Assembly: GCA_964513625.1 (NCBI GenBank)
Contig: CAZENH010000001.1
Span: forward strand, 241,642 to 305,641
DNA length: 64,000 nt
Source: an uncultured Myxococcales bacterium
Lineage (GTDB): Bacteria; Myxococcota; B64-G9
Reading direction: 5' to 3'
The notes under the pieces were generated by a model that was not told where the DNA came from, made no database searches, and saw only the letters and a program-made list of their open reading frames with translations. Below are positions 28,030 through 47,590 of this stretch, one piece after another. Positions within the stretch are counted from its first letter, which is position 1. Every line of letters begins with the position of its first letter. Position numbers and translations under genes: made by a program.

Positions 28030-29679
28030 TTGGCTCAATTGCAACGCGTTTGCATCTTTCAATGGTCTTGGAGGGCAGCCAGATTGGTCGAGATCATCGT
28101 CGATCGTAAGCGGGCGGTGCACGAGAAGAGACGCTGGGTCAGGCTGACCCGCACCTGTAACAACCACTGCCTCTTCTGTCTCGATTCCGGAATTGTCGGC
28201 GAGAAAATACGGGCAGTCGACGAGATCCGCGCCGAGATCGACGAGGGACGCAGAGATGGTTGCGAACGCCTGATTTTGTCCGGTGGAGAACCCACGCTGC
28301 ACCCGGATTACCTGGATCTGGTTGCCTATGGCGCCGGGCTGGGTTACAGCTGGGTGCAGACAGTGTCCAATGGCCGCATGTTTTCATATTCTTCGTTTGC
28401 CGCTCGCGCAGTCAAATCAGGGCTTTGTGAAGCCACTTTCTCCATGCATGGACACGAAGCGAAACTGCACGACCGCCTAGTGGGAGTAAAAGGTGCTTTC
28501 GATCAAGCCATCAAGGGAATGGACAACCTCAGGAATCTCGGGATCGTTGTCAACGTCGATATTGTTCTGACCGGCCTGAATGCTGAGCAACTACCAGAAA
28601 TAGTCGAGTATTTCATGCAATCCGGGGTGCGCGAATTCGACTTGCTGTGGATGGTGCCTTTCGGCTCGGCCTGGCGGAACAGGCACGAACTGTTTCTGGA
28701 ACCGGAATCGGCCTTGCCGCGCTTACATGAAGCCATACGGCGTGCCAGGGCCGCCGGCGCCGTGGTCTGGACGAATCGCCTGCCGCCGCCGTTGCTGGAA
28801 GGACACGAGGATCTCATACAGGATCCCCACAAGCTTCACGATGAAGTTCGCGGTCGGTTGCCCGAATACATGGAATTGATCTCGAGCGGGGAGCCCTTGA
28901 GATGCAATCAACCCGAGAGGTGCCGTCAGTGTCCCATGGAGGGGTTCTGCCGGTCCCTCGAGAGCCTATTGTGCGAGACTGCCGAAGGCGGGCCGACTTC
29001 ACTAAGCGTCAATGCTGACTGCCAGATTGAATCCGGGATGAAAAAACTACTTGCCGGTTCCTCACGACTGCGAATCCACGCCCGGGATCAAAAAAGACTC
29101 GCTGAATTCATCGGATCCCTGGAATTGGACGGACAAGCTCTCATACTGGTTCTCGATTTCATACCGGATAGCGATGGGCTGGATTTCATTGCTGGATTGG
29201 GAGAAAATGTAGTCAGGATGGCCTCCGGTGTTCCAGATGTGTTGGAGGCGATACTGGCCGGGTGGCCGGGTGAAGTCGAGGTCATGCTGAACCGGGCGAC
29301 TGAAGACTGGGTTGCCGAGAGAATAGATTTTATTTGCTTACAGACAGATCGCTTGCTGTTTTCTGCGGAACCCATTGCAACTAATCCTGCTGAAGCTCTA
29401 AGGCCACTTGCAAGATACGGCATACGCTTACTGAATCTTCCGCGATGCCTCCTTGCCGGTGCAGTGTCAGTTGACGAGACCGAGCCTGTGGCTGTCGAGG
29501 CTGTAATGGGGCTTGCCGCGGGAGAGTTGGCAGCCTTCACCGAACATTACATCAGTCATTGCCACAGGACATACTCTTTGCGGTGCAAAAACTGTCAGTG
29601 GTGTGCGTCATGTAAGGGTCTACCCGTGAATATGATTCGCGCCCATGGTTTTGACGCTCTGTGTCATCCATCCACCTGA
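28030..29679 (+). CDS. radical SAM protein with C-terminal Cys-rich segments
   Basis: RLTRTCNNHCLFCLDSG. C-terminal CNQPERCRQCPMEGFC and CKNCQWCASC. The start could instead be TTG 28084, which is preceded by GGAGGG. Confidence 0.7.
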   Translation: MAQLQRVCIFQWSWRAARLVEIIVDRKRAVHEKRRWVRLTRTCNNHCLFCLDSGIVGEKIRAVDEIRAEIDEGRRDGCERLILSGGEPTLHPDYLDLVAYGAGLGYSWVQTVSNGRMFSYSSFAARAVKSGLCEATFSMHGHEAKLHDRLVGVKGAFDQAIKGMDNLRNLGIVVNVDIVLTGLNAEQLPEIVEYFMQSGVREFDLLWMVPFGSAWRNRHELFLEPESALPRLHEAIRRARAAGAVVWTNRLPPPLLEGHEDLIQDPHKLHDEVRGRLPEYMELISSGEPLRCNQPERCRQCPMEGFCRSLESLLCETAEGGPTSLSVNADCQIESGMKKLLAGSSRLRIHARDQKRLAEFIGSLELDGQALILVLDFIPDSDGLDFIAGLGENVVRMASGVPDVLEAILAGWPGEVEVMLNRATEDWVAERIDFICLQTDRLLFSAEPIATNPAEALRPLARYGIRLLNLPRCLLAGAVSVDETEPVAVEAVMGLAAGELAAFTEHYISHCHRTYSLRCKNCQWCASCKGLPVNMIRAHGFDALCHPST

Positions 29680-32700: not shown

Positions 32701-33375
32701 GGCAACGGCTGCGAGACGGAACTTACAATCGATCCAATAAACTGCGGTTTTTGCGGCAATGTTTGCACCTATGACAATGCTCAGGCGGGCTGCGCCAGTT
32801 CGTTATGCTTCATGGGAGCTTGCGACGCAGGATACTACAACATAGACAACAACCCGGGAAACGGATGCGAGTGTGCCGAAGATGGATTTGCAGATATTTG
32901 CGACGACGCGCTGATTACAGACCTGGGTTCGCTGGCCAGCGGCTCATCGGTTCAGATCACCGGCAACCTGATCCCGGCGCCTGCCGACGAGGACTGGTTC
33001 ACTTTCAGTGCGGCTGATAACAACAGCTCCGACCTTGTAAACGGATTTGACAACTACCACTTGCACATTTACTTCGACTCGGTCGGTGGAAATCCATCAA
33101 ACCAGTATGTTTTTCAGGTCTATCGCAACACGAACGTCAGTGCTCAATGCGCCCAGAAAGGAAATCCGGTTTGCTCCGGCGAGTATCTCGAGTATGACCA
33201 TGACTACTACAACGAGTGTTCGGTTGGCACCGCCCATCAGTGTCGCTCCACGGCCAGCGGCCCAGGAGCATGTTATTGTGTCAACAATACTGCCCGTTAC
33301 TGGCTGCGCGTAGAGCGGGCAGGTTCTACCGTAACCTGCGCTCCATACCTGATTAACATCGACTTCACTCAGTAG
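29719..33375 (+). CDS. giant lipoprotein (1218 aa) with repeated beta-sandwich (choice-of-anchor/HYDIN-like) modules, Myxococcus-type Cys-rich repeats and a C-terminal pre-peptidase-like module
   Basis: Lipobox MKAKNVTLVLAGVLVLGSFVGCSS. Repeated ...FGxVxVGxxxxxxxxLSNxGxAxLxI... modules. CNGGSCELLHCLDGYDDCNGFDLDGCE...NCGSCDNAC repeats. Confidence 0.6.
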   Translation: MLELLKQGQEQKFMKAKNVTLVLAGVLVLGSFVGCSSDTTPPDDGSILCSEDNDCPYGTFCSDGVCRTTSVPCDEADSCPPGSVCRNGACVVEGTDGGIDGDGGDGGEGEQSPKPDIVVLSPPLSGDPPVYQVNFGNVLVGETVGKQIELSNDGDADLQIIQLNFEAGSDADDFSIDEDQLNSLPIVVPPGESTILDVLYTATDGLTDHAVLDIISNDPDEPLVQIHLLSEFKGEAFASVNPTSLEFGDIPVGDSSQPLSFLVSNQGTGNAVLQVEDIRFGIMSNPDFDLQVTDAASQGVVPPVFVNNGEFLQVDVTYHPQLREDDADEVIVVSDDVVHPSLSVAIAGRGVLGDLNVQPSPVDVGKVRVGQHGELIVTLSNSGGAPFSISGVNIADVSQEWTLSSSDLDLADLGNNPKQLAPAESVTVLLGFDPEDVGQELGTLVIDNTTEEPQRQVAMQANGFIPPSVQTTPDPAVLLFGNVQMDFGSGAKEIAQLDVLIKNVGGEDLIISNIQRAGTTSPEYTFEPDQFGSIAPDVELPLRVTFTPMDLGSENGALILDTNDPDIELDGVTGRFKIDLLANGIDPNIFVSPAAAYNFGDVYVGRQALKDISIRNAGTGPLEVTAIDLTAGSSPDFELFNLPALPMVLSNTSIEVIFQVGYTPDLLGPDSGAIQIESSDIGRPDGVTIDLAGNGAGCPAGAIDCDGDPQNGCERPCVPSGVEQCNYIDDDCDCDTDEDFDTQNDPQNCGNCGNVCSYPYGVPACNGGSCELLHCLDGYDDCNGFDLDGCEKNTDTDVQNCGSCDNACQFDHAGASCLAGTCVMGSCNTGYLDCNSSDVDGCEADIFFDELNCSGCGVRCTFANGNGICSGGNCFLDSCIAGYDDCDNQDGNGCEVDLLTDPNNCSFCNNVCPGSVGTPVCNNGSCDVSSCNPGLAECISGDGQPCETNIWADPNNCNGCDIVCSLDHATADCSNGSCIVDTCDSGYGDCDSLDGNGCETELTIDPINCGFCGNVCTYDNAQAGCASSLCFMGACDAGYYNIDNNPGNGCECAEDGFADICDDALITDLGSLASGSSVQITGNLIPAPADEDWFTFSAADNNSSDLVNGFDNYHLHIYFDSVGGNPSNQYVFQVYRNTNVSAQCAQKGNPVCSGEYLEYDHDYYNECSVGTAHQCRSTASGPGACYCVNNTARYWLRVERAGSTVTCAPYLINIDFTQ

Positions 33376-33387
33376 TAACACCATCCC

Positions 33388-33416
33388 TTGACAGGCGACT
33401 TCCGACAAACTAGGTT
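33388..33416 (+). promoter_or_regulatory. candidate sigma-70-like promoter TTGACA-17-TAGGTT upstream of the hxs-like operon
   Basis: Hexamers read directly. An AAGGGAG SD at 33441-33447 precedes ATG 33458. Confidence 0.4.
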
Positions 33417-33457
33417 TGAGCGGTTGTCGCCATGCCAAGCAAGGGAGTGCCTGTACC

Positions 33458-33883
33458 ATGGACACGAGAATAGAGGCCGTAAAAAATCGCGTTTTATGTG
33501 AAATTGACGAGAAGGTTTTCCCCCGCGGGGTTGTGGTCAGCACCGCCTACCTGTTTTTAGAACGCTGCTACGTGCGTCTTGAGTCGGCGCCCAAGGGACG
33601 CATAGTCGTCCAATTAAAGGGCAAACGTAAGACAGCCAAGGCACGGCTGCAGACCCTGGCTGATGAGTTCGGCAACGAGTTGATGCACCAGTTGATGCGC
33701 GACCAAGTCGCCGAGAAAACCAACGGGTTGCGGGAAATCCTGGTTGGGCGGGCGCTGCTTTCGGCCGTGCCGGCAGGGGAAGAGGGTTCTTTAGCTGAAT
33801 CCGAGGAAGAGCAGGATTACCTCGACGATCCCCTGGGGATCGCCGTTCCCTGGGAAGAGAAATATGGCGACGAAGAACAATAG
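33458..33883 (+). CDS. small HxsD-like protein, paralog 1 (141 aa from ATG 33458), with an acidic C-terminal tail
   Basis: It aligns to the next ORF: FPRGVV...VRLESAPKGRIVVQL...TAKA...LADEFGNEL against YPRQAL...IEFSKEGSKTIVNF...VAAKVPDEFTNFAL. SD-supported start. The track's 33416 start adds 14 unlikely residues. Confidence 0.4.
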   Translation: MDTRIEAVKNRVLCEIDEKVFPRGVVVSTAYLFLERCYVRLESAPKGRIVVQLKGKRKTAKARLQTLADEFGNELMHQLMRDQVAEKTNGLREILVGRALLSAVPAGEEGSLAESEEEQDYLDDPLGIAVPWEEKYGDEEQ

Positions 33884-34112
33884 CCGCCTTGCAGGAGAAG
33901 CCAAGGCTACACTCAGGCTCGATTTGGCTTTCTACCCCCGGCAGGCGCTTGACAGGGCCAGGGAAGCCTTCTCCAAACTTGCTGACATCGAGTTTAGCAA
34001 GGAAGGATCGAAAACGATTGTCAACTTCAGCCATATGCGGACCGGTGTCGCGGCGAAGGTGCCCGACGAATTTACGAATTTCGCGTTGGCCTGCACGGTG
34101 TCCGGACAATGA
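33864..34112 (+). CDS. small HxsD-like protein, paralog 2 (82 aa)
   Basis: Paralogous to 33458..33883. ATGA translational coupling into the downstream rSAM. Its position and size fit the small partner protein of His-Xaa-Ser systems as I remember it. Confidence 0.45.
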   Translation: MATKNNSRLAGEAKATLRLDLAFYPRQALDRAREAFSKLADIEFSKEGSKTIVNFSHMRTGVAAKVPDEFTNFALACTVSGQ

Positions 34113-35590
34113 AGGCGTTTCGCATTCCCGAGGTTCATAGCCAGAAACTCATGCCGCTACGCTTTCGTGAACTCGATGGGCGAGTGTTGCTGACCAACGA
34201 CGCCGGAGAGCACGTCTGGCTCGAACGCGACGAGTTCGGAGATTTCCTGGCCGGAACACTCGCCGAAGACGGTCCAATATTCGGCAAGCTTCAGAAGAAC
34301 AATTTCGTTCGCCAGCCGGACAGCGAGAAGGCGGTTATGGATAAGCTGCACCGGCGCAGCGACCACCTCTTGCAGGGTCCCAACTTGCATATCGTCATCT
34401 TGACACTGCGCTGCAACCAGAACTGCGTATACTGCCATGCCAGTCGCAAGCCGCAGAAAAGCAAGGGCTTCGATATGAGTATCGAGACGGCCGCGCGTGT
34501 TCTGGACGTGATTTTTCAAAGTCCCTCGGATGAGTTGACCATCGAGTTCCAGGGAGGGGAGCCGGCCTTGAACTTCGATGTATTGAGATATTTCGTCGAA
34601 GAAGCCTATCGCAGGAACAAGGACGTAGGGCGACAGCTATACTTCAGCCTGGTAAGCAACCTGAGCGCGTTGAATCAAGAGCAGATTGACTTCCTGGTAG
34701 ACAACGGGGTGATGGTCTGTACCTCTATTGACGGGCCTCAGGAGCTTCACGATCACAATCGGCGTTTTTCCAAGAAGAGCAGCTACCTGGAAGCACTGGG
34801 AAGGATCGAGCAGTTCAACGAAGCCTATCGCAAGCGTGAACTCGACCCCGAGTTGGCCTACGTCAACGCCTTGGCCACCGTTTCGCGCTCTGCGCTTGCC
34901 GACCCTAAAGCACTGGTCGACGAGTACGTGCGCTTGGGCCACAAGGTTGTTCACCTGCGGCCGCTAAACCCTTTCGGAATGGGACTCAAAATATGGTCTC
35001 GCGAGGGCTACACGGCTGGGGAGTTTCTGAAGTTCTACGAGCAGGCGCTGGATTACATAATCGAGCTTAACAAGCAGGGCGTCGAGATCATGGAGAAGAT
35101 GGCGTCGATCATGTTGACTCGCATTTTGACCGACGAGAACCCCAACTACATGGATCTGCGTTCTCCTTGCGGGGCCGGCCTGGGCCAGCTTGCTTACAAC
35201 CACGACGGTCGGGTGTATACCTGTGACGAGGGGCGAATGGTTGGGGCCATGGGAGATGACCTCTTTTGCATCGGGGACGTCCACCAGGATGGTTATTCGG
35301 ATATTATCCAGCACCAGGGAGTGCGCACATTGTGTGTGGCCTCTTGCATCGAGGGACTGCCTGGCTGTTCGGATTGCGCCTACGTTCCTTATTGCGGCGT
35401 CTGCCCGGTCTACAACTACATAATGGAAGGCGACCTGGTTGCGCGAAGCTCCTCAAATGATCGTTGCCGCATCCAGAAGGGTATGCTCGACATGCTTTTC
35501 TTGCGTCTGCGCGAGCCCGGCCTTCATGATCTTCTGAGCCGCTGGACCGAAACCAAGGACCGTTCAAGCGTCTACAGCAGGAAAACCTGA
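34109..35590 (+). CDS. radical SAM/SPASM maturase (HxsB/HxsC-like), ~100-aa N-terminal extension
   Basis: LRCNQNCVYCHA. C-terminal SPASM-like CGAGLGQ...TCDEG...CVASC...CSDCAYVPYCGVCP. Confidence 0.8.
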   Translation: MKAFRIPEVHSQKLMPLRFRELDGRVLLTNDAGEHVWLERDEFGDFLAGTLAEDGPIFGKLQKNNFVRQPDSEKAVMDKLHRRSDHLLQGPNLHIVILTLRCNQNCVYCHASRKPQKSKGFDMSIETAARVLDVIFQSPSDELTIEFQGGEPALNFDVLRYFVEEAYRRNKDVGRQLYFSLVSNLSALNQEQIDFLVDNGVMVCTSIDGPQELHDHNRRFSKKSSYLEALGRIEQFNEAYRKRELDPELAYVNALATVSRSALADPKALVDEYVRLGHKVVHLRPLNPFGMGLKIWSREGYTAGEFLKFYEQALDYIIELNKQGVEIMEKMASIMLTRILTDENPNYMDLRSPCGAGLGQLAYNHDGRVYTCDEGRMVGAMGDDLFCIGDVHQDGYSDIIQHQGVRTLCVASCIEGLPGCSDCAYVPYCGVCPVYNYIMEGDLVARSSSNDRCRIQKGMLDMLFLRLREPGLHDLLSRWTETKDRSSVYSRKT

Positions 35591-35614: not shown

Positions 35615-37054
35615 ATGCCGAAAACCGGGGACGATATCCGCGCATTGTTCTCGGCGACCTCGGGTGAATGGGAGATCGCAGAGCTTCAGCGCGGACTTGC
35701 CAGTTTGCTGCTTTGTATCCGCGCCTCCAGCCCGCCCGATCGTGAGGTCACACTTTGGATAACGCCCCGTAACGATTCCGAGCCTGCTTTCGGACGCACC
35801 AAGCGCTTCAATATTGCCCTGCGTGGCGAGGGATATTCACAAGCCGAATGCGATCTGGCGGCGGCGGTCATCAAGCAGATCTCAGCACAAGAAATGGATT
35901 TTCCCGAGATTAGTCTGAGCATGCCACCTGCACTCGGCCTGCATTCACTGGTGCTCAACGTTTCTAATCGTTGCAACCTCAAGTGTCGCTTCTGTTTCGA
36001 AGACAAATCGAGGCGCACGGCCCCAATGCCGAGCCTTCAGGAGATACGCAGGACGTTTGAAAATGACGATCCATCGAAAGTAAGAAATGTGATGTTCATG
36101 TCCGGTGAGACCGTGCTGAGAAAGGATGCGCTTGCCCTGGTTGGAATGGCCCACGAGATGGGATACGCGAATATAGGGTTGGCTACCAACGGCACTTATT
36201 TCACGAGCAAGGAAAGGCTTGAGCCATTTCTGCAAGCGGGCCTGAATGGCCTGGAGCTTTCGATTCATTCAATGAGCCCGGAACATGCCAGCTATCTCTC
36301 GGGCAGGTCATTTACACCCCTGAAGCAGCGCCAGTGCCTGGAGGTAGTCGACACACTAACTGGTGAATACCCGCTGCATAGCACGATCAACACGGTCATC
36401 AACTCGGTGAATGTCGGAGATTTTCTCGATCTGGTGGGCATCATTGAACGGGATTTTCCCAGGATAAGACCGACCTATCATGTCAAATACACAGAGGCGA
36501 TTGAGAAGATCAGAGACAGAATCAAGATTGCCAGTTGGCCGGAAATCCGGAAAGCCGGTATTGTACGCGAGTTGCCTGAAGAAATTCACCCTCGTATTAA
36601 TTTCGAGAATTTTCCGCTTTGCACCATTTCGCCTTGCTACTACCTCAGCTCAAACCTTATTAGCTTCCTTGTTTCCGATGCCTACAGCTACTTCAATCCG
36701 GGTGACAATGAGAATTTGGTCACCGCCGATGCATTCAGATCCAGAAAAACCTGTTTCGCCGACGAGTGCGCTAGCTGCAACCTCCAGTTTCTCTGTTGTG
36801 GAATGAGTAAAGCCTATTTGGATTTATTTGGTAGTTTGGGGCATTGTGCCCCTCAAGATGCCGAAGCGCATCAGGTGCTCAAACGAGCCATCGAATTTCG
36901 CAAAGAGAACAAGCTGGACTATTCGAGCGAGATCGAACAGAAAATTGGAGATACCATCGGTCTCCTGCGGCGGATTTTACGCGCCAGAATGCAGTCTGGT
37001 CTCGGCCGATCATCAGTTGGGGAGGATGCAATTTTGCGTCAAATACTACCTTGA
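35615..37054 (+). CDS. second radical SAM/SPASM-twitch maturase (HxsB/HxsC-like), ~118-aa N-terminal extension
   Basis: SNRCNLKCRFCFEDK. C-terminal CFADECASCNLQFLCCG. AGGAGA SD. Confidence 0.75.
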   Translation: MPKTGDDIRALFSATSGEWEIAELQRGLASLLLCIRASSPPDREVTLWITPRNDSEPAFGRTKRFNIALRGEGYSQAECDLAAAVIKQISAQEMDFPEISLSMPPALGLHSLVLNVSNRCNLKCRFCFEDKSRRTAPMPSLQEIRRTFENDDPSKVRNVMFMSGETVLRKDALALVGMAHEMGYANIGLATNGTYFTSKERLEPFLQAGLNGLELSIHSMSPEHASYLSGRSFTPLKQRQCLEVVDTLTGEYPLHSTINTVINSVNVGDFLDLVGIIERDFPRIRPTYHVKYTEAIEKIRDRIKIASWPEIRKAGIVRELPEEIHPRINFENFPLCTISPCYYLSSNLISFLVSDAYSYFNPGDNENLVTADAFRSRKTCFADECASCNLQFLCCGMSKAYLDLFGSLGHCAPQDAEAHQVLKRAIEFRKENKLDYSSEIEQKIGDTIGLLRRILRARMQSGLGRSSVGEDAILRQILP

Positions 37055-37080
37055 CATTGTTAGGAAACAGCAGCTAGAAT
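37051..37080 (+). promoter_or_regulatory. candidate strong sigma-70-like promoter TTGACA-18-TAGAAT in front of the precursor gene
   Basis: TTGACAttgttaggaaacagcagcTAGAAT overlaps the stop of the upstream rSAM gene. A GGAGG SD at 37097-37101 sits 7 nt before ATG 37109. Confidence 0.45.
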
Positions 37081-37108: not shown

Positions 37109-37507
37109 ATGTCCAAGGATAAATTTCCGAAGGCGGAGAAGAGCACACAGGCTTTTCTCACCAAGGACGAAAAGAAGCTGACTCGTCGAGACCTGCTCTC
37201 GACTTCCAGCGTGGCTCTGCTCGCGGCCGCCGGTACAGCGATGATCCCTGGTAAGGCTGGGGCATCGACTGTTTCAAAGGCGCTAAAGCTACGCAAGAAG
37301 GCGCCAGGCGTCGGTGGGATATCGGGCAAGGATCTGTCGCACTGCTCGCACGGCTCGCACGGGTCCCACGGCTCACACGGGTCCCACGGCTCTCACGGGT
37401 CCCACGGCTCACACGGGTCCCACGGCTCACACGGGTCCCACGGCTCACACGGTTCGCACGGGTCCCACGGTTCGCACGGATCTCACGGATCTCACGGGTC
37501 CTGGTAG
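37109..37507 (+). CDS. hxsA: His-Xaa-Ser repeat precursor protein (HxsA-like). It has a twin-arginine-type signal peptide followed by SHC(SHG)17SW.
   Basis: [52 protein letters not shown]|[24 protein letters not shown] then 18 consecutive Ser-His-Xaa triplets. Strong SD. It lies immediately downstream of two rSAM-SPASM genes. Confidence 0.8.
37337..37504 (+). repeat. perfect in-frame 9-nt (18-nt super-unit) tandem repeat TCN-CAC-GGN x18 encoding (Ser-His-Gly)n
   Basis: tcccacggctcacacggg is repeated with only synonymous third-position changes. Confidence 0.95.
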
Positions 37508-37511
37508 CCCT

Positions 37512-39311
37512 TCAGTCCTTTGGTTTTCTGCAAACCAATATCCAAAGCGTGCTTTTTGTTTCATCGGTTGTGAATTTCTGTTCGGTAGCCAACCCGCATT
37601 TTTCACAAAGCTCTTGAACTTCCTCCAGGTGGAGGTTTGTAAGATGCCCGAAAGGCAATCCAGATTGTGACTCTACCCGCTGTGTGACTTGAGCTTTTCT
37701 CAGCACTCCGAAAACCTCGTCCTCGGCCAGGATAATGCGGCCGCCGGGAACAGTCAGGGCTGCCATTTTCGAGACGGCGGTTTTGATTGATGGCAGATGA
37801 TTCAAGCTTCTCAGCGCACAGACTGTGTCATAATTAGGCTCGCTTCCGTGAAAATCATCGAAAGTCGTTTTTTCGAAGAAGATGTTTTCCCCCTGTTCGA
37901 TGCTATCAATATCAGGGTCAATACCGAGATAGACCAGGCTTCCTTCGTCGATTGCCGGAAGAATGGCATCCAGATAAGGACTCTGGCCGCAGCCGACATC
38001 CAATAACGTCCCCCGCGCTGTCGCAAGAACACTTCGGAGAATCTCCACGGCTCGCTCGAAAGAAGGCTCTGCTGTTTGCTCAAAAACTCCGCCGCATAAT
38101 GAGCGTATTGGGCACACCGAACAATTCTTTGAAAGAACCAGTCGCTTGAGATCGCGGCCTAGGTCATCCGAAAGCAACTTGTCACTTGTATCCAGGTAGA
38201 CCTGTCCAAGGTCGCGAATTGCGTGTCCGATGGTCTGGTCTGAAAAATCCCGGCTGGACGTATGAAAGACCTGGATACGCTCATCGCCCAGGTAGACGGC
38301 CATGCCCCGCACGGGATCGGGAGGAGGCAGACTGCCGGACTGGATGGGGCAACTTCGAGGCGAAAACGGCACGGGCACCGAGGGCGGCTTGAGGTTGAAC
38401 GAATTTGAAATATTCTGTGTGAGCGGATGCAACTCACCGTCGCCGCGGTTTGCAAGATATTGTTCGAATACCCCCCGACAGCGCCTGCGCAGGCTGCATT
38501 GCGAACAGAGAGATCCGAAGCCACGGTTGAGATCGTCGATTGGGTGCCAGTCGTCCTCGAATGCTTCGGACATGATGAAGAATCCATCCTCGCGCAAACC
38601 CGACTCGAGAGGATGGATGTTGTCGGGTAGCAGACACAGGGGAAAACCGTCGACTGCGTACCTTACTCCTTCAAAATCAGGTAGTTGTTCGATGATTCCT
38701 GCTATCGTCTCCGATGCGAGCTTCAAGGATGGCACCAGATCCTCGAAGTTGTCTAGAGCGTTGCCCTCCGGCTCGATCATCGAAAACTTCAAGCGCACCG
38801 GTGCAAGTTTGGCTGCAAGAGCGGGCATTCTTTCGAGGCTATCGATGTTCCAGGCAGTGACCACAATGTTAATAGTTAAATCGTCTATTTTTCCCGAGAG
38901 ATATCTCAATCCCTTGATGGTTTGGTTGAAAGATTTAACTTGCGTATGGCGGTCATGAAGCCCCGCCTCGGGAGCGCAAAGCGAAACGTAGACATACTCG
39001 AGTCGGCGCTCGATCAACTGTTCGGCAAGACTCCCATATGCCAGCATGCGACCGTTGCTAACCAGTCCTAGAGCCATATCCGCATTGCGTATTATGTTTG
39101 TGATATCAAGCAGATCAATCCGGATAGTGGGTTCACCCCCGGAGAGCACCAGCATGTCGGCGCCAAGGGAGGCTGCCCGCTGGATCTTTTTTTCAAGCTG
39201 CTCGATGCTAGAATCGATTCCCCGGTGCGGGGATGAGTGGCAGAAGACGCAGTTATTATTGCAGCTGTAACCGATCTTCAACAACGCCTTTCGCGATTGA
39301 CTCTTGAACAT
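37512..39311 (-). CDS. radical SAM (SPASM-like) and class I SAM methyltransferase fusion protein
   Basis: N-terminal half has [14 protein letters not shown] plus [12 protein letters not shown].../[12 protein letters not shown] Cys clusters. C-terminal half has [13 protein letters not shown] (methyltransferase motif I). I chose start ATG 39311 (MFKSQSRK) to avoid a 110-nt overlap with the upstream gene. It is convergent with hxsA, 4 nt apart. Confidence 0.7.
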
Positions 39312-39315
39312 GATG

Positions 39316-40314
39316 TCAGAGTCTGCCCGAAAGCCTGGGCCAAAACTGCGATCGAAGCGAGAAACGCATGTTTGAGCGTCTGTCATATTCGTCGAGCGCC
39401 GATGACAGGCAATCTTGCTTGCCAAACATCGCTCGCAGCATCAGCAAGCGGGAACTGTTCGGATAGATTTTTTCAAACTGCGTGATGGTTTCTTTTCCCT
39501 TTATTGTCTCGAACACGTGCAGGTCCTTTACGCATTCTCCGGAGATCTTCTCGGAAAGCTGCCCTGAACGGCAAGCCGACTCATCGCCGTTGCAAAGCGC
39601 CAGGCAAAAAGGTTCGAATTCACCGAACTCCTTGCACCTTGAAGCTTGTCGCTTTGACAGGATCTCGCATGTTGCGTGCATTTTTTCAGGGCTCATACCA
39701 AGAATGTCGGCTGCCTGATCGGCGAGTTTGCCGTGACAGTTTCCTCCATAGAGAACCAACATACGTGCCATGTCTAGGCGACAGCCCTTTCGCAGTCTGG
39801 GATCAATCCCACCCAATAGATCACATACGTTCGGGTTCCGGGAAACCAATGATTGGCAATTAGACCAGTTTGTGACTATGTCCCTGAGTGTATCGTCGCA
39901 AGCGCTCTCTGGATTGCTTGGCATCTGTCTTAATGTACTCGAGATGGAAGCTGTCTTGCTCCATAAAGGCTTAATAGTTGCCAGCAAGTCTTCGTAGGAT
40001 GGTTGCTTTGCGGTTCGCTCGCTGGCGACCTCTGTCAGAATCTTAGACAGACTTGCACGGGCCTGGAGATGAAGGTTCCAGAGCGCAAAATCGACTGGAA
40101 ATTCGCTGTATTCGTCCAGGTACATCTCGAGATCGAAGAACGAATCAAGGACTCGTTTCTCGATACTTCGGCCCAAGTACTCAACATACAATCGAATTCC
40201 TTCACGCCTGCCTTGACAAAAGCCTGCCTCGGCCCCGCGTGAGCCGGCCAACGCCAGGAAGGCAAATGTCAGGGTCCCGGCGGCCACCAGATTCGAACGA
40301 AAACGAGGTCTCAC
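39316..40314 (-). CDS. secreted cysteine-rich hypothetical protein (332 aa, ~20 Cys)
   Basis: Signal peptide MRPRFRSNLVAAGTLTFAFLALAGSRGAEA. No recognisable enzymatic motif. Confidence 0.45.
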   Translation of the reverse strand: MRPRFRSNLVAAGTLTFAFLALAGSRGAEAGFCQGRREGIRLYVEYLGRSIEKRVLDSFFDLEMYLDEYSEFPVDFALWNLHLQARASLSKILTEVASERTAKQPSYEDLLATIKPLWSKTASISSTLRQMPSNPESACDDTLRDIVTNWSNCQSLVSRNPNVCDLLGGIDPRLRKGCRLDMARMLVLYGGNCHGKLADQAADILGMSPEKMHATCEILSKRQASRCKEFGEFEPFCLALCNGDESACRSGQLSEKISGECVKDLHVFETIKGKETITQFEKIYPNSSRLLMLRAMFGKQDCLSSALDEYDRRSNMRFSLRSQFWPRLSGRL

Positions 40315-40457: not shown

Positions 40458-42707
40458 ATGCCGGAGGCCGTCATCATACAGCCGCCGTTGCTTCTCTCGA
40501 AGGAGTTCATCGACTATCCTTACTTCTCGAACCTAGGCGTCTACCAGGCGGCTTCCATTCTGAGAGGTTGTGGCTTTCAGGTCGCAGTAGTCGATGGCTT
40601 GATCGACGATGATGGCCTGCGCGAGATTGGAAAGCGGGCTTGGCTGGGAGAACCAAGAGACACCTTTCTTGAAAAGCTGGCTGGTATTCGCGCCGATTTG
40701 ATTGTCGTGCATGCATCCTCTTTTTCACGTACCGATCCCGGCAGAGACTGGCTTGTTGAAATAATGAACGGGCTGCAGGCGACAAGGCACGATTTGCTGG
40801 TCATGGCAGAAATGGTCACGGGCGGGATGCACTATCTCGAGACTGATCCACGTGACTGGCTGAACGAGATTCCCGGCCTGGATCTGTACCTGCGCTATGA
40901 GGGGGACAGACTGCTCGCCAGGCTCGCCAGCGAGCTTGCGGACGACCTGAGGCCGGAGCGTGAAATCTGGGAGGAACGACTTTCCTTTCCTCTGGATGAC
41001 TTGCCAGCTCCAGCCTTCGATCTGCTCGATTTCGAGGGCTACTTTTCGTTTCTGCAGCGGGCGCTGCAGACCCCCTGGCGGCCCGGACCGATTCCCGCCG
41101 AGCCGGCGCGGACTCTGCCAATAGTCACCGCGCGCGGTTGCCCATATGGATGCGTCTTCTGTTCATCCGGACCAGGCCTGGAAGGCGGCGACAGTCGCCG
41201 CTATCGACCCTTACCCTGGCCCATGGTTGAGTCTTGGATCCGAAGCTGGGTAAGTGAGTTCGGGCTGGAGCGCATCGTGGTGCTCGACGACGTAGCCAAT
41301 CTGGACAGACGACGTTTCAGCGCTCTTTTGGACGTGCTCGAAGAGCTTAAACTGCGCGTCGAATTTCCCAACGGCCTGCGCGCCGATCGCCTTGCAGAAG
41401 ACGACATCCGACGCCTTGCCGGTCTCACCTCGAGTCTCAAGGTGTCGCTGGAAAGCGCGAGTGTACGTGTCCAAAACGAAGTTCTCGGAAAGCGGCTCGA
41501 TCCGCAATCAGTTGAGAGAGTTGCAGAATGGTGCAAGCGGCACGGTCTCGGTTTGCAGGTGCACTACCTGGTGGGCATTCCGGGTGAGAACAGGAGCGAG
41601 ATTGTCCATACACTGCGCACGGCCCGAAGGTATCTCGACAGCTACGGAGCGAGTCCGCTCGTGCAATTCGCGGTTCCGCTGCCGGGCACCGAATTGGACA
41701 AGGTCTGCAGGGAGAAAGGGTACATGCAGGATCAACCCGAAGACTGGCTGGCCTGTTTTCAGCACCATCCCGTCATCAAGACTGCGGAATTCGATCAGCG
41801 ATTTCTCAGGCAGGCAGTTGATGCCTTTCGGCTGGTGACGGCTCCAAGTACGATGCGCAAAGTGATTGTCAACCTGACATATCTTTGCAACAACCACTGT
41901 ATCTTCTGTGCCGTGGGCGATCGAGCCCGCAGGCAGGCCGATACTGACAATGTGAAAGAGGCTTTACTCCGCTACAGAAGCGAGGGATTCGAACTGCTGG
42001 ATATCGACGGGGGAGAGCCAACGCTGCACCCCGGACTTTTCGAAGTAATAGCGCATGGACGTTCTCTGGGTTTCCAGCGCATAACTCTTGTGACCAACGG
42101 GAGGCGACTCAGCTACCGTGCCTATGCGGAGAGACTTGCCAGAAGCGGAGTGGACGAGGTGCTCGTGTCGTTGCATGCGCCTGACGCTGACGGCCAAGAA
42201 CGGATTACGGGCGTTTTCGAGAGCTTCGGCCAGACAGTAGCGGGAATACAGAACATCTTTGCCTGTCTTGGTTCTCCTGATCGTGTCGCCGTGAACACTA
42301 CGCTGGTGGCTGATAATCTGGCCTCTGTGCCGCAATTGGGGCGCTTGCTTACCGAGTTGGGTGTGCGGCGCTGGAACCTGCAGGTTGTCACTCCGTTTGG
42401 CCGGGCAGGGTACGAGCAATTACCGAGCCAGGAAAACCTGCGGCGCATCCTGGGCGATCTGCTGCAAAATCCACCCGGCCGGATGCATATTCAGATCGTC
42501 AATTGCCCCCCTTGCCTGTTGCCGGGCCACGAAGACGCGGCGGCCGCGGATTTCGGCAAGTCATCGCGGGACATGGTCTTTGTGGGCGAAAGTGGTGAGA
42601 ATTTGCAGGCATTCCTGGCTCACAGGAGAAAACAAGATGAACGCTGCCTGATCTGTACCTGGGCTACTTGTTGTCCGGGCATATATGTGTTCGATGACGC
42701 TGGTTGA
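40458..42707 (+). CDS. dual-domain radical SAM protein: an N-terminal B12-binding class B rSAM fused to a second rSAM domain with a C-terminal Cys-rich (SPASM-like) tail
   Basis: First core TARGCPYGCVFCSS (aa ~220). Second core NLTYLCNNHCIFCAVGD (aa ~480). Tail NCPPCLLPGHE...CLICTWATCCPG. Confidence 0.75.
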   Translation: MPEAVIIQPPLLLSKEFIDYPYFSNLGVYQAASILRGCGFQVAVVDGLIDDDGLREIGKRAWLGEPRDTFLEKLAGIRADLIVVHASSFSRTDPGRDWLVEIMNGLQATRHDLLVMAEMVTGGMHYLETDPRDWLNEIPGLDLYLRYEGDRLLARLASELADDLRPEREIWEERLSFPLDDLPAPAFDLLDFEGYFSFLQRALQTPWRPGPIPAEPARTLPIVTARGCPYGCVFCSSGPGLEGGDSRRYRPLPWPMVESWIRSWVSEFGLERIVVLDDVANLDRRRFSALLDVLEELKLRVEFPNGLRADRLAEDDIRRLAGLTSSLKVSLESASVRVQNEVLGKRLDPQSVERVAEWCKRHGLGLQVHYLVGIPGENRSEIVHTLRTARRYLDSYGASPLVQFAVPLPGTELDKVCREKGYMQDQPEDWLACFQHHPVIKTAEFDQRFLRQAVDAFRLVTAPSTMRKVIVNLTYLCNNHCIFCAVGDRARRQADTDNVKEALLRYRSEGFELLDIDGGEPTLHPGLFEVIAHGRSLGFQRITLVTNGRRLSYRAYAERLARSGVDEVLVSLHAPDADGQERITGVFESFGQTVAGIQNIFACLGSPDRVAVNTTLVADNLASVPQLGRLLTELGVRRWNLQVVTPFGRAGYEQLPSQENLRRILGDLLQNPPGRMHIQIVNCPPCLLPGHEDAAAADFGKSSRDMVFVGESGENLQAFLAHRRKQDERCLICTWATCCPGIYVFDDAG

Positions 42708-42759: not shown

Positions 42760-43497
42760 ATGCTCGAAGCCCCTTTCAAATGGCGCGTGCCCATGGTTGT
42801 TCTCGGGGCGGGAAAAGGGCGCCGACTGGGAACTGCTTCGGGTGGAATTCCGAAAATTCTTCTTCCCATTGTCCCGGCCTCGAATGAAATGCAACAACAC
42901 ACACTTCTCGATCTGTTGGTCCGGTCCTGGAAACCCTGGGCGAGCCGGTTGTACGTGGTGGCGTCTGCAGATACTGGTTTGATTCGTGCTGCCTTGAAAC
43001 GTCAGCCGCTGCCTGGCGAGATACACCTGCAACCAGAGCCTGATGGAACAGTGAATGCCTTGCTGTCTCTTGTACGGCATCTCCCCGAACGTTTCATTGT
43101 CGTTCTGGGTGACTGCCTGTTAGGTGGTCGCTTCGATGACCCCATTGGAGGCCCTTTCCCGGGTGTCGGCGTTTGGCAAGAGGCGGATCCAGACTCGATA
43201 AGGGCAAACTTTGCGGTTAGCTTGGATGCTGAGCGCATCAAGGCGGTTGAGGAGAAACCCGGCAAAGTAGATGGCCGACAGTGCGGTATGGGCGTTTATT
43301 TCCTGGACCGTGGTTTTCTAGAGAGCATTGCAGATTTACCTTTAAACGCCCACGGTCGTCGCGAGCTTACCGACGCACTTGAATATTTTCTTGCCAACGG
43401 CGGCGAACTGAGGGCATCGAATTTTTCAGGCAGCTACATAAACATAAACACTCCGGCAGACCTTCAAAGGGCCCGACAGCTTTTTGGCAATTCATGA
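42760..43497 (+). CDS. sugar-phosphate nucleotidyltransferase-family protein
   Basis: MVVLGAGKGRRLGTASGGIPKILLPIV N-terminal NTP-transferase signature. Confidence 0.6.
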   Translation: MLEAPFKWRVPMVVLGAGKGRRLGTASGGIPKILLPIVPASNEMQQHTLLDLLVRSWKPWASRLYVVASADTGLIRAALKRQPLPGEIHLQPEPDGTVNALLSLVRHLPERFIVVLGDCLLGGRFDDPIGGPFPGVGVWQEADPDSIRANFAVSLDAERIKAVEEKPGKVDGRQCGMGVYFLDRGFLESIADLPLNAHGRRELTDALEYFLANGGELRASNFSGSYININTPADLQRARQLFGNS

Positions 43498-45098
43498 TCT
43501 CGGTATTAATCATTCCAAGTCGGCTGGAAGGCCTGGCAGAGAGCATGGCCGGCATCACGGCCCAACTGGGTCCGGACGACGAACTGCTGGTGGCGCCTCT
43601 CTCTCGCTCAGTGAAGTTTAGGGCTGTCGTCGCCAATCTGGTCTCCGGTATATCCGGCCGGCGTGCGAAACTGATACACACAACGGATTACCTTCCAGAT
43701 GTTATGCATGGGAGTTTTTTACTGCCTTTTCGGGAAGGGGAAGTGCTGCTTCCCGGGGCGCTTTCCAGGCTGAGCGATTTCATAAGACAAGATCCGGAAC
43801 AAGACTGTGTAAGGGTGTGGCCACCGGGGGTTGCGCCCAACAATGCCCGTCGCCGGCTCTTTGGAGTGCCCTTGGCGCTGAAACTCGGCAGGCCATACCT
43901 GTTGCACAAGACTCTGTTGCAGCGCCTGAGTCGCCGAGGTCTTCTGCGGACGTTGCGCGATGATTCAGCGGACATCATCCTGGCTATGGAGAATGCCGGA
44001 GGTGGAATCTGGTTTTCAGGAGACCTGCTGGAGTCACAAACCAGCGCGAGTCTGAGCAATCTTGATCGAGATCAAACACTAGCCCTGGTGAAAAAGTATG
44101 TTAAACAGCGCAAACTCGAGGTTTCCGTTGGCGGTATGGATACTGCCGTCGAGGTTCAGGCCGACCGCCCTCGCGGGATCGACATAGAACTGACTAACCG
44201 CTGTAACGCGCGCTGTATTTTCTGTCCCCAGCGCAGCATGGCAAGCTACGGAAATATGTCTGAAGATGTGTTTGATAGAATACTGCAAACGATCCGCGAA
44301 GAGCCGATCGGCACGATCTATTTCATTGGTCGGGGCGAGCCACTGGTGCATCCAAAGTTTATCGATTATATCAGGAAGATCCGCGACTTGACGGGAATCG
44401 AGTTCGAGTTGTTTACAAACGGCCTCGCCCTGGTTCCCGAAGTGGTCGATAATCTTGCCGAGCTGAACGACTCGTTTTTGAATATTACCATCAATGTCAG
44501 TCTGCATTCACTCAAGGAGGAAACTCATCGAGCGCTGACCGGCACTGATTTGGTGGTAATTGCCCAGAACCTGCGCTATCTCCAGAGTCGGGCAGACAAA
44601 CTTGATGTCAGCTACGCTTTCGTCACGAACAAGATCAACGAAGAAGAAATGGCGTCACTGCGCCGCTACCTCGACCGAACGGGAAACCGTAAGTGGGACG
44701 TGTCCCTGGTTTACAACAAGGGCGGGCTGATCGAAGAGGGGCCCCTGTTCGACTGGGATTTCTATCGTCGACAACTTACTCTTGAAGATTCTGCCTCCGG
44801 TTTGACGGGTCCGTGCTGGTACTCGTACTGCGGAGCATACTATTTCGTGAACTATCGCGGCCAGTTCACTCTGTGTCATGACGATTTTCGCGAGGAAACA
44901 ATCCTGGGTGAGGTAGGCAAGGACAGCCTCGATACCATCGATTCCCGCGTGGCAGAGCTGCACCGACAGGGTGGCGCACCTCGTTGCCGACGTTGCAACA
45001 AGAGACAACGCGAGCTATTTCATGGAGAAAACATCGACTCCGAGTCTCAGGTCAAGGGGCGTTTCACTATCGAGGCCAGGGAGTCATCGAGAGTATGA
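43494..45098 (+). CDS. radical SAM/SPASM protein with a ~220-aa N-terminal non-rSAM domain
   Basis: IELTNRCNARCIFCPQRS. C-terminal CWYSYCGAYYFVNYRGQFTLCHDDF...CRRC. ATGA overlap with the upstream gene. Confidence 0.7.
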   Translation: MISVLIIPSRLEGLAESMAGITAQLGPDDELLVAPLSRSVKFRAVVANLVSGISGRRAKLIHTTDYLPDVMHGSFLLPFREGEVLLPGALSRLSDFIRQDPEQDCVRVWPPGVAPNNARRRLFGVPLALKLGRPYLLHKTLLQRLSRRGLLRTLRDDSADIILAMENAGGGIWFSGDLLESQTSASLSNLDRDQTLALVKKYVKQRKLEVSVGGMDTAVEVQADRPRGIDIELTNRCNARCIFCPQRSMASYGNMSEDVFDRILQTIREEPIGTIYFIGRGEPLVHPKFIDYIRKIRDLTGIEFELFTNGLALVPEVVDNLAELNDSFLNITINVSLHSLKEETHRALTGTDLVVIAQNLRYLQSRADKLDVSYAFVTNKINEEEMASLRRYLDRTGNRKWDVSLVYNKGGLIEEGPLFDWDFYRRQLTLEDSASGLTGPCWYSYCGAYYFVNYRGQFTLCHDDFREETILGEVGKDSLDTIDSRVAELHRQGGAPRCRRCNKRQRELFHGENIDSESQVKGRFTIEARESSRV

Positions 45099-46195: not shown

Positions 46196-47590
46196 ATGAG
46201 GACGGCAGGAAAACGAGTGATGCTTGTCTCCCCGCCCGGCCGTTGCACGCCGCATGGCTCATTTCATGCCGTGCCTCCGGAGGGGCTGGCCAGGCTGTCT
46301 GCTTGGTTAAGAAGAGAGGGATTCTACGTCGCGACGCTCGATGTACTGATCGAGGGCTACGATCTACGGCAAGTCGAGGGAAAGACCGTCAGATACGGTA
46401 TCTCCGCAGATCAAGCTGCTTCCAGAATAGCCGAGTGGTCACCGGATTTGATTGGATTCAGTTGTCCTTTTACCTGCACTGAACCGGACCTCATCCAGAT
46501 TGCGGGAGCCTGCAAGTCGCTGCTGCCTGATGCGCCTATCGTTTTTGGAGGAGCTCACGCGGCCGCCGATGCTCTGGCCTTGCTCGAGAAGGAACCGGCG
46601 GTGGATCTCGTTGCCCTGAGCGAAGGAGAACTGGCGCTTGCTTCCCTGCTTTCAGCTATGCAAGCTGGCGGCAACCCGAACGAAGTGGACGGTTTCGCCT
46701 CGCGAAAAAGTGATGGGGGCATTCAGAAGCGACCGCTGAAGCAGTTTCTCGATCTCAACAGGCTTCCCGAGCCCGCCTGGGATCTTTTTCCCATCGACGC
46801 TTATGCCAGGGCAAACGCTCCACACGTTGGAGCGGGTTTGGGCAGACGCTATCTGCCGACCACCTGGAGCCGTGGTTGCGTCAATGCCTGCACATACTGC
46901 CTGACACCACGTCTTTGGGGTAGAGGCAACCATCGAAGGCGCCCGATAGAGAATGTACTCGATGAGGCCAGGCATTTAAGATCCGAATACGAAATCGAGG
47001 AACTGCATGTCGAGGACGACTGTCTCTTAGCGGACAAGGCCTGGTTTCATGCGATCCTGGAGGCATTATCGAGTGAAAATCTCGGCCTGCTCCTTGATTT
47101 TCCCAACGGCCTGGATGTAACAAATCTAGACAGATCAACAGCAGTCAAGTTGGCGCGGGCGGGCACGATCAGAGCCTGCCTCGTGTTCGACGCCGGCGAG
47201 CCCGAAGCTCCCTTGAAATGGGTCGGGAAGCAAGTGTCACAGGAGCAAGGCAGCGAGGCTGTGGCCATGCTGCACGATGGGGGCATCTCGTTGCTTGGTT
47301 TTTTCATGCTTGGCTTTCCGGGACAGACCATCGACGATATGCGCGCTACCGTCGACTATGCGCTCTCACTGGATCTCGATGCATTGTCCATTTTTATCGC
47401 CACTCCATTTCCCGGAACACCCCTGCATACCTATTGCGAGCGCAAGGGCCTGCTGGTGCCAGATCGTGATCTCAGGGACTATCGTTTCTCCACTGGTCAT
47501 ATTCGCACTGCTGAATTCGGCCCCGAGGACACAGAGCGGTTTCGACACGAGGGTTGGCTAGAGTTTATGAATCGGAAGAGAGCTCCTTAG
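46196..47590 (+). CDS. B12-binding (class B) radical SAM protein
   Basis: RVMLVSPPG...ATLDVL B12-domain-like N-terminus. SRGCVNACTYCLTP. Alternative start 46220. Confidence 0.8.
   Translation: MRTAGKRVMLVSPPGRCTPHGSFHAVPPEGLARLSAWLRREGFYVATLDVLIEGYDLRQVEGKTVRYGISADQAASRIAEWSPDLIGFSCPFTCTEPDLIQIAGACKSLLPDAPIVFGGAHAAADALALLEKEPAVDLVALSEGELALASLLSAMQAGGNPNEVDGFASRKSDGGIQKRPLKQFLDLNRLPEPAWDLFPIDAYARANAPHVGAGLGRRYLPTTWSRGCVNACTYCLTPRLWGRGNHRRRPIENVLDEARHLRSEYEIEELHVEDDCLLADKAWFHAILEALSSENLGLLLDFPNGLDVTNLDRSTAVKLARAGTIRACLVFDAGEPEAPLKWVGKQVSQEQGSEAVAMLHDGGISLLGFFMLGFPGQTIDDMRATVDYALSLDLDALSIFIATPFPGTPLHTYCERKGLLVPDRDLRDYRFSTGHIRTAEFGPEDTERFRHEGWLEFMNRKRAP

Follow-up and report, generated by a model that had tools for sequence, protein, structure and literature searches.

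The window analysed here, a 64,000-nucleotide (nt) stretch from an uncultured Myxococcales bacterium, carries beside its hxsA gene a single open reading frame (ORF; 37512..39311, minus strand) that encodes a 599-amino-acid (aa) fusion protein, with an ATG start and a TGA stop in the ORF list. The protein joins a radical S-adenosylmethionine (SAM) domain, a four-cysteine middle domain and a class I methyltransferase domain, and it most likely represents a radical SAM maturase of HxsC type to which an orphan cysteine-rich domain and a methyltransferase have been added, in an expanded HXS-like cluster. The architecture of the fusion, its conserved motifs, the purifying selection acting on it, its homology to HxsC and its conserved linkage to hxsA, hxsB and hxsD are established and carry this reading. 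That the fusion acts in the HxsA4 pathway we consider likely; the whole model, in which it is a bifunctional and probably three-cluster maturase of an HxsA4-type precursor, we hold with moderate confidence.

Architecture of the fusion protein

37512..39311, minus strand: whole fusion gene, stop codon included; radical SAM, four-cysteine middle and class I methyltransferase domains (ORF list, Pfam, NCBIfam, homologues, AlphaFold2)
38424..39311, minus strand: HxsC-like radical SAM core with auxiliary-cluster cysteines, aa 1-296 (NCBIfam, BLASTP, alignment A2, Foldseek)
39240..39263, minus strand: CNNNCVFC, the CxxxCxxC motif of the SAM-binding [4Fe-4S] cluster, C17/C21/C24 (translation; invariant in 43/43 homologues)
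38634..38636, minus strand: C226, first Cys of putative auxiliary cluster I (invariant in alignment A1; matches a Cys of canonical HxsC)
38478..38507, minus strand: CxxCx5C (C269, C272, C278), putative auxiliary cluster I, also present at the C-terminal end of canonical HxsC (no variation in A1 or A2)
38076..38423, minus strand: conserved middle domain, aa 297-412, with SNSFN, PPDPxRG, TRDFSD and GQVY motifs and four conserved Cys (alignment; no solved structural relative)
38349..38351, minus strand: C321, putative fourth ligand of auxiliary cluster II (88% conserved)
38094..38123, minus strand: second CxxCx5C (C397, C400, C406), then GGVFE; internal repeat of the HxsC C-terminal motif (91-93% conserved)
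37515..38075, minus strand: class I SAM-dependent methyltransferase domain, aa 413-599 (Pfam, PDB profile, Foldseek)
37977..38006, minus strand: SAM-binding motif I, aa 436-445, the 10-letter motif picked out earlier from the sequence (translation; D438, G440, C441 and G442 at least 90% conserved)

An earlier reading of the gene made from its letters (the sequence-only reading) described a single chain of about 600 aa with radical SAM and methyltransferase halves, and this description holds: the ORF encodes 599 aa plus a stop, and both domains are matched in Pfam. A Pfam scan, a check of the kind proposed there, places Radical_SAM (PF04055) at aa 13-159 with 63.8 bits against a threshold of 29.5 and two methyltransferase models above their cut-offs (PF13489, 38.3 bits against 27; PF08242, 35.8 bits against 30). 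That reading missed, however, the likeness to HxsC, the four-cysteine middle domain, the conserved linkage to hxs genes and the natural split forms found elsewhere. We take the ATG at 39311 as the start because every homologue in the alignment begins at an equivalent M-x5-KALLKVGY; a longer TTG start at 39425 was rejected, since some 110 nt of the ORF would then lie within the upstream 332-aa gene and the homologues begin at the ATG. No curated model in NCBIfam or Pfam spans the whole protein, and a fold search and a PDB profile search returned no solved chain covering both the radical SAM and methyltransferase halves. An AlphaFold2 model of the whole chain, with a 43-sequence alignment as input, has a predicted local distance difference test score (pLDDT) of 93.2 and a predicted template modeling score (pTM) of 0.91.

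The radical SAM half (aa 1-296) is, by sequence comparison, homologous to the catalytic core of HxsC, including its C-terminal C...CxxCx5C set. Its top NCBIfam match is HxsC itself (TIGR03977; 111.4 bits at E 3.6e-32, with aa 1-234 matching positions 19-259 of the 292 in the profile), followed by HxsC4 (NF038332; 84.2 bits, below the 500-bit cut-off for membership). BLASTP aligned aa 1-297 of the fusion with residues 94-378 of the annotated HxsC P0090 (E 1.6e-17), reaching the C-terminal end of HxsC. In alignment A2, the fusion and annotated HxsC have CxxxCxxC, GGEPT, NGR, PLC and CxxCx5CxG[VL]F in common, and HxsC reads ...QLCVL...CHQCSVRDACGGVFT at the first extra cysteine set. Invariant across the 43-homologue alignment are C17/C21/C24, G58-G59-E60, C226, C269, C272 and C278 of this half; the 13-letter motif that the sequence-only reading had named, which contains CNNNCVFC, lies at aa 14-26 of the translation. 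Foldseek and structure matches of the N-terminal half include SkfB, BlsE, GDGT-MAS, MoaA, SuiB and viperin, with a triosephosphate isomerase (TIM)-barrel fold, and among the PADLOC defence families there were only generic viperin-type radical SAM matches. By curated score and by domain architecture alike, the fusion is not a member of HxsC.

Beyond the SAM-cluster motif, the fusion contains two four-cysteine sets with the common pattern C...CxxCx5C followed by (R/G)GVF. Auxiliary Cys clusters had been suspected from the letters, and the extra cysteines are real: C226/C269/C272/C278 are invariant and C321/C397/C400/C406 are 88-93% conserved among the 43 homologues. From this pattern, each extra set probably binds an iron-sulfur (Fe-S) cluster. 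The second set lies in the middle domain, for which we found no Pfam match and no relative among solved structures. The SPASM model TIGR04085 matches this domain weakly (E 0.09), and PF13186 (SPASM) is not among the Pfam families reported for the fusion at E <= 0.01; of the 7-8 Cys SPASM/twitch motif CX9-15GX4C...CX2CX5CX3C...C, the x3C and GX4C elements are absent, while the two C...CxxCx5C sets are present.

Four overlapping class I methyltransferase Pfam models cover aa 431-578 of the C-terminal domain, Methyltransf_23 and Methyltransf_12 above cut-off and Methyltransf_25 and Methyltransf_11 just below it, and PDB profile and Foldseek searches with the C-terminal half match class I methyltransferases such as RebM and 3l8d. 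G440, G442, H505 and H556 are invariant in the alignment, D438 and C441 are nearly so, and the acidic beta-2 residue D465 sits in a conserved YLGxDP motif. The best NCBIfam matches of this half are weak and mixed (ArsM-like, 1.9e-5; ketoarginine methyltransferase; UbiG). Pfam found no cobalamin-binding domain (PF02310) in the fusion, the same tool detecting PF02310 in the neighbouring 464-aa gene, and this agrees with the earlier statement that the architecture is not that of class B. HemN and HemN_C, which would mark a class C methylase, are absent among the six Pfam families and among the 25 NCBIfam families shown of the 46 matched. Because a class B cobalamin domain is absent and a Rossmann class I domain is present, it would be reasonable to expect, as the sequence-only reading did, conventional bimolecular nucleophilic substitution (SN2) methylation separate from the radical chemistry.

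Conservation of the fusion and its linkage to hxs genes

A protein search returned about 80 full-length relatives of 556-655 aa and 29-79% identity, all with both Pfam domains and with metagenome-assembled genome (MAG) labels of Myxococcota, Deltaproteobacteria and Polyangia; the closest are Myxococcota MAGs at 74-79% identity. HMMER with aa 296-599 alone found 335 cluster representatives at E <= 1e-3 and 214 at E <= 1e-10, and the best 150 matches are mostly proteins of 560-650 aa that are matched at positions of roughly 300-600; a smaller group, about 300-340 aa long, consists of stand-alone middle-plus-methyltransferase proteins. All three domains are under purifying selection, with ratios of nonsynonymous to synonymous substitution (dN/dS) against the two closest loci, L001 and L002, of 0.11-0.24 in each and of 0.16-0.18 in the methyltransferase domain. 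Domain-shuffled relatives also exist: the radical SAM part and the middle-plus-methyltransferase part are split genes in locus L051, P0081 and P0083 lack the methyltransferase, and the 840-aa P0077 is a target-like radical SAM protein fused to one resembling the 549-aa paralogue listed below. Such shuffling strengthens the case for a functional link.

The split versions, both in L051 and as the stand-alone proteins, would also be the natural support for regarding the fusion as an assembly or frameshift artefact of two separate genes, a concern that the sequence-only reading had raised. The chance of this is negligible and the fusion is almost certainly real, given that an identical 599-aa protein occurs on an independent Joint Genome Institute (JGI) contig (P0001), that about 80 independent assemblies have equal architecture and length, that the reading frame is continuous with the conserved middle domain spanning the junction, and that the fusion was modelled as a single chain with the high pTM given above.

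One scan of species-representative genomes yielded 80 loci, 50 of them with a full-length fusion, and neighbouring genes were counted within the stored flanks, an HxsA-like ORF being defined as one with at least six tandem H-x-S. The flanks of these 50 loci contain an HxsA-like ORF in 28, HxsB in 23, HxsD in 21, a homologue of the window's 749-aa double radical SAM protein in 16 and one of its 549-aa HxsC-like protein in 21; where at least 5 kb is available on both sides, HxsA is present in 16 of 22 loci. The earlier assignment of the gene to the hxs locus is thus upheld by a linkage conserved across several phyla, and the fusion-hxsA loci bear the MAG labels Myxococcota, Deltaproteobacteria and Elusimicrobia. 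In 17 loci the distance from hxsA to the fusion is at most about 100 nt, or hxsA and the fusion 3' end overlap; three relative orientations occur among them. In L003, L004, L009, L017 and L029, hxsB abuts hxsA and the fusion lies immediately across hxsA, so that the fusion stands closest to the precursor among the HxsC-like enzymes, because no radical SAM gene intervenes between hxsB and hxsA. The more distant radical SAM loci that have no target-like enzyme (L068-L076, L080) contain no HxsA-like ORF.

The precursor beside the fusion is always of one type, its architecture recurring with fusion homologues in 28 loci, with a leader carrying an (F)L(T/S)xxExK motif and often a TRRD sequence like that of twin-arginine translocation (Tat) signals plus a hydrophobic stretch. 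Its array usually starts with HCS (in a few cases HAS, HVS or HSS) and continues with 9-25 HGS repeats, x being almost always Gly, and HGSW followed by a stop ends every fusion-adjacent precursor that is complete at the C-terminus among L001-L063. A look for other repeat-type precursors in the loci without hxsA turned up none, apart from an unrelated Pro/Ala/Arg repeat in L015.

Contigs assigned to Nanoarchaeota, Woesearchaeota and Methanosarcinales bins also carry target-like radical SAM genes (L044, L046, L047, L058, L061, L064, L067, L070, L075, L079), some of them beside HxS-repeat ORFs and HxsB or HxsD. This may mean that the family extends across domains of life, or that the contigs were misbinned.

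The hxs genes of the window and the other genes around the fusion are the following.

25749-27122 (minus strand), 43494-45098 (plus), 46196-47590 (plus), 42760-43497 (plus) and 47587-49648 (minus): two further B12-binding radical SAM genes and one of SPASM type, together with genes for a sugar-1-phosphate nucleotidyltransferase, for glycosyltransferases and for nucleoside diphosphate (NDP)-sugar dehydratase and epimerase
28030..29679, plus strand: 549-aa HxsC-like radical SAM paralogue (TIGR03977, 111 bits)
29719-33375, plus strand: 1218-aa protein, directly upstream of hxsD, in which a lipoprotein-like signal is joined by Ig-like (HYDIN/ASH/DUF1573) domains and numerous repeats rich in Cys
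33416-33883, plus strand: hxsD, 155 aa (TIGR03976, 56 bits against 50)
33864-34112, plus strand: hxsD-like gene, 82 aa (NF038315, 54.6 bits against 41)
34109-35590, plus strand: hxsB (TIGR03978, 519.7 bits against 370)
35615..37054, plus strand: 479-aa radical SAM protein at the canonical HxsC slot between hxsB and hxsA; its score does not make it an HxsC (TrsS, Tes and MoaA match best)
37051..37080, plus strand: near-consensus sigma-70-like promoter TTGACA-18-TAGAAT, 11/12, a consensus match only, 29 nt upstream of the hxsA ATG
37109..37507, plus strand: hxsA (HxsA4 type), a precursor of 132 aa whose Tat-like leader (LTRRDLL) is followed by HCS(HGS)n...HGSW (NF038313, 101.4 bits against a cut-off of 55)
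37340..37501, plus strand: 18 tandem copies of a 9-nt unit, which encode the His-Gly-Ser array (Tandem Repeats Finder)
39316..40314, minus strand: 332-aa Cys-rich protein with an N-terminal signal-like sequence (ORF list); its stop TGA, 39316-39318, lies 4 nt before the fusion ATG
40458..42707, plus strand: 749-aa double radical SAM protein with a class-B-like N-half and an HxsC4-like C-half (two PF04055 stretches, NCBIfam; no Pfam B12 match)

The roughly 25 kb around the fusion are unusually dense in radical SAM and sugar-modification genes; at least five radical SAM genes of the locus are HxsB- or HxsC-like, and more lie elsewhere in the window. The two HxsD-type genes stand in tandem and overlap by 20 nt, and each of their products might pair with a different one of the several HxsC-like enzymes. 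Homologues of the 479-aa protein are confined to L001 and L002. The C-terminal half of the 549-aa paralogue, some 300 aa, is uncharacterised, and a homologue of this paralogue overlaps the fusion 3' end in many distant loci. The 332-aa protein has no Pfam, NCBIfam or PADLOC match, and weak homologues of it lie upstream of the fusion in L001, L002, L012 and L025; because its stop is only 4 nt before the fusion ATG, the two genes are probably co-transcribed and translationally coupled. The position of the 1218-aa gene upstream of hxsD is kept in L001, L002, L009, L011 and L014. The 479-aa radical SAM gene has its stop codon inside the sigma-70-like promoter. The hxsA precursor may own a strong promoter, like many precursors of peptides that are made by ribosomes and modified after translation (RiPPs), and it is possibly transcribed alone, into the fusion 3' end, because of this near-consensus promoter 29 nt upstream.

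Proposed role and alternative explanations

How might such a protein act on the HGS array? We propose that aa 1-296, a trimmed HxsC, would cleave SAM to a 5'-deoxyadenosyl radical that abstracts hydrogen from the His-x-Ser repeat, a step modelled on the action proposed for HxsC at the SHRSS motif of Escherichia coli HxsA. The second C...CxxCx5CGG[VL]F set, in aa 297-412, would bind a further Fe-S cluster, and this domain would bridge or couple the radical core to the methyltransferase. Within aa 413-599, a second SAM would donate its methyl group by SN2 to a nucleophile of the same substrate, the candidates being a His nitrogen, a Ser oxygen, the Cys that belongs to the HCS start and the C-terminus. 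We infer the substrate, the methyl transfer, the cluster binding and the order of steps from homology and gene neighbourhood. A more specific scheme seems to us very improbable: the methyltransferase would provide a one-carbon unit by methylating, in every HGS repeat, a nucleophile on His, Ser or Cys, and the HxsC-like domain, with the aid of the extra Fe-S domain, would then take hydrogen from this methyl or a carbon next to it and close a methylene or methine bridge, so that one chain would combine SN2 and radical SAM chemistry iteratively along the 18 repeats; if true, methylation followed by bridging would give a "+C/-4H"-type (+8 Da) change as in E. coli HxsA and a tractable model for HXS modification.

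Several observations weigh against our reading of the fusion as an HxsC-type maturase that also methylates. The TIGR03977 score of 111 bits is far short of the 267.9-bit cut-off for HxsC membership, and the HxsC N-terminal domain of about 95 aa is missing, the first cluster Cys lying only 16 residues after the fusion start. The 479-aa protein, the 549-aa protein or the C-half of the 749-aa protein could each be the real counterpart of HxsC. Motif I does not keep its third glycine among the homologues, and homology of the methyltransferase is too weak and heterogeneous for the methyl acceptor to be named from sequence. Lastly, 22 of the 50 loci have no hxsA in the available flank, six of these with at least 5 kb on both sides, and therefore some family members may act in trans or on another substrate.

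This last point leads to the view that the fusion serves the neighbouring multi-radical-SAM module (the 549-aa, 749-aa, 332-aa and sugar-nucleotide/glycosyltransferase genes) on some other substrate, with hxsA a mere neighbour. Besides the six loci just mentioned, this view can draw on the probable co-transcription of the fusion with the 332-aa gene rather than with hxsDBA, on a 549-like gene that overlaps or abuts the fusion in L016, L018, L019, L021, L026, L028, L032, L033, L045, L053 and L070, on a 749-like gene adjoining it in L004, L027 and L040, and on P0077, which joins target-like and 549-like radical SAM proteins. We nevertheless judge it unlikely: in 17 loci, from different phyla and in three orientations, hxsA stands right beside the fusion; among curated families it is HxsC that the radical SAM half resembles most; no second repeat-type precursor turned up in the loci without hxsA, the unrelated repeat of L015 apart; and the 549- and 749-like genes co-occur with hxsDBA, so that the modules are not independent. 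A different doubt concerns the methyltransferase-like domain, which might be structural, SAM-sensing or cyclase-like, as in SpnF, or might handle a SAM-derived adduct from the radical domain. The methyltransferase-fold cyclase SpnF (4pne) is indeed among the fold and profile matches, the third motif I glycine varies, P0081 and P0083 retain the radical SAM and middle domains without the methyltransferase, and canonical HXS reaches its +C/-4H change without any methyltransferase. Class I folds whose motifs are intact mostly work as transferases, however, and here motif I (D438-x-G-C-G) has been kept, the acidic beta-2 residue lies in a conserved stretch, neither H505 nor H556 varies and the domain is under the purifying selection described above, which makes a non-methylating role decidedly unlikely.

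The junction between the fusion and hxsA raises a further alternative, for which two features matter.

37508..37511, between the two genes: 4-nt gap CCCT between the convergent stops (sequence)
37520..37538, within the fusion gene: inverted repeat TTGGTTT-ctgc(a)-AAACCAA, 7 AT-rich bp, in the last fusion codons (LVCRKPK); -5 kcal/mol, no T-run

The hxsA stop TAG (37505-37507) faces the fusion stop TGA (37512-37514) across exactly the 4 nt counted in the sequence-only reading. That reading had also pointed to a hairpin at 37523-37537 as terminator-like; there is a weak inverted repeat at this place, its actual span being 37520..37538, but it is coding, has no T-run and is not conserved. The 81 nt around the repeat fold no better than shuffled sequences (z = +0.76), and the repeat is broken in L001, L002, L003, L009 and L011 by progressive substitutions without compensation. 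The consensus scan listed no terminator-like site near 37.5 kb, and Rfam gave no match over 33-41 kb at E <= 1. A terminator or attenuator at the junction was rejected on these grounds: a weak hairpin, no scan site, no Rfam match, and no conservation in five relatives.

Because no terminators are found, transcript overlap at the junction is likely in the window's clade. The sequence-only reading had suggested that such proximity could couple the two genes through antisense interference, and in its full form this idea holds that transcription from a strong hxsA promoter interferes with the maturase mRNA or makes antisense RNA to it, coupling their expression. The lack of a terminator-like element between or near the stops and the near-consensus promoter directly upstream of hxsA would fit, as would the stop-to-stop gaps of 2-12 nt in the tail-to-tail loci L001, L002, L003, L009, L011, L014 and L017. 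So would the overlaps in L005 (~11800-11941), L007 (~11800-11926) and L013 (~4200-4332), where the fusion ORF has no usual stop and runs about 45 codons (~130 nt) antisense to the HGS repeat as (A-T/S/N-R)n. The orientation is not conserved, however: hxsA is co-directional with the fusion in L012, L036, L040, L050 and L052, the gap is 46-75 nt in L004 and L029 and it exceeds 1 kb in 11 loci. With a tail-to-tail arrangement in one clade only, a hairpin that is not conserved and no Rfam match, and with tight convergent packing being common in bacterial genomes, antisense coupling appears very unlikely. The convergent junction of 4 nt reflects how closely one clade packs its genes, and a regulatory role lacks support from conservation.

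Comparison with HXS and other known systems

HXS was recognised as an antiphage defence only in 2026, when the E. coli HxsD-HxsB-HxsC-HxsA system was described as blocking DNA entry (Li et al., Nat Commun 2026, PMC13128918). In that system HxsB and HxsC mature HxsA through a site-specific +8 Da ("+C/-4H-type") change on the SHRSS motif, and HxsC binds HxsD (PMC13128918). Both this modification of the effector and HXS chemistry at large are unexplained, and the HXS enzymes have resisted reconstitution (PMC13128918). Precedent for His-x-X cross-links comes from the His-containing three-residue cyclophanes made by radical SAM enzymes (PMC11499958). A literature search found no description of radical SAM and class I methyltransferase fusions in RiPP or Hxs contexts. 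The fusion belongs to a sizeable unannotated family, of about 200 sequence clusters and named by no curated model, that puts together an HxsC core, an orphan Cys-rich domain and a conventional methyltransferase. The fusion is a candidate for a new peptide modification combining methylation and radical chemistry on His-x-Ser, its middle domain is a domain without a solved structural relative, and the repetitive 18-HGS substrate may ease the mass-spectrometric reading of HxS chemistry.

Compared with HxsC (TIGR03977), the fusion has the same CxxxCxxC, GGEPT, NGR and C-terminal C...CxxCx5CxG[VL]F motifs and is encoded beside genes for HxsA, HxsB and HxsD, but it has about 300 extra C-terminal residues (the four-cysteine domain and the methyltransferase) and no HxsC N-terminal domain of about 95 aa. 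Catalogued HXS systems are 99.7% in Pseudomonadota and almost all in D-B-C-A order (PMC13128918), whereas the fusion stands outside that gene order, here on the opposite strand, in a locus outside Pseudomonadota with two HxsD-type genes and several HxsC-like paralogues. The precursor differs as well: unlike E. coli HxsA, that of the window has 18 HGS repeats, ends in GSW and has neither a peptidoglycan-binding domain nor basic residues in its repeats. Because HxsA4-type precursors have no such domain or basic residues, the DNA-binding model for HXS may not transfer to them. HxsC4 (NF038332) and the cluster paralogues (the 549-aa protein and the C-half of the 749-aa protein) belong to the same radical SAM subfamily as the fusion, at 84-104 bits and in shared neighbourhoods; the HxsC4-like paralogues are all far under the 500-bit cut-off and without a methyltransferase, and the 549-aa protein does not have C226.

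The closest solved folds of the N-half are the SPASM/twitch maturases SkfB (6efn), SuiB (5v1q) and PqqE (6c8v), together with BlsE and MoaA. Like the SPASM/twitch enzymes, the fusion has a putative auxiliary Fe-S site after its TIM-barrel core, with a CxxCx5C resembling the SPASM core motif; unlike them, it has two C...CxxCx5C sets about 130 residues apart, the second in a domain without a PDB relative. With class B methylases, of which three class-B-like genes lie in the window, it shares a radical SAM domain and predicted methylation in one chain. It differs in having no cobalamin domain and a Rossmann class I module that would bind its own SAM, and its methylation should therefore target nucleophiles, not unactivated carbon. 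The RiPP-tailoring methyltransferases BamL/BpumL (5dm1, 4kwc) and LahSB (6uak) and the small-molecule methyltransferase RebM (3bus) have the same fold and SAM motifs and give weak profile matches (E 1e-13 to 1e-5). Those enzymes are separate proteins, whereas the methyltransferase of this family always follows the four-cysteine domain and usually forms one chain with the radical SAM core. The same contrast holds for C10P and C10Q of CC-1065 biosynthesis, compared here by description: a radical SAM protein and a methyltransferase-fold protein cooperate in that pathway, but they are separate proteins, C10P is HemN-like (class C), and the substrate is a small molecule.

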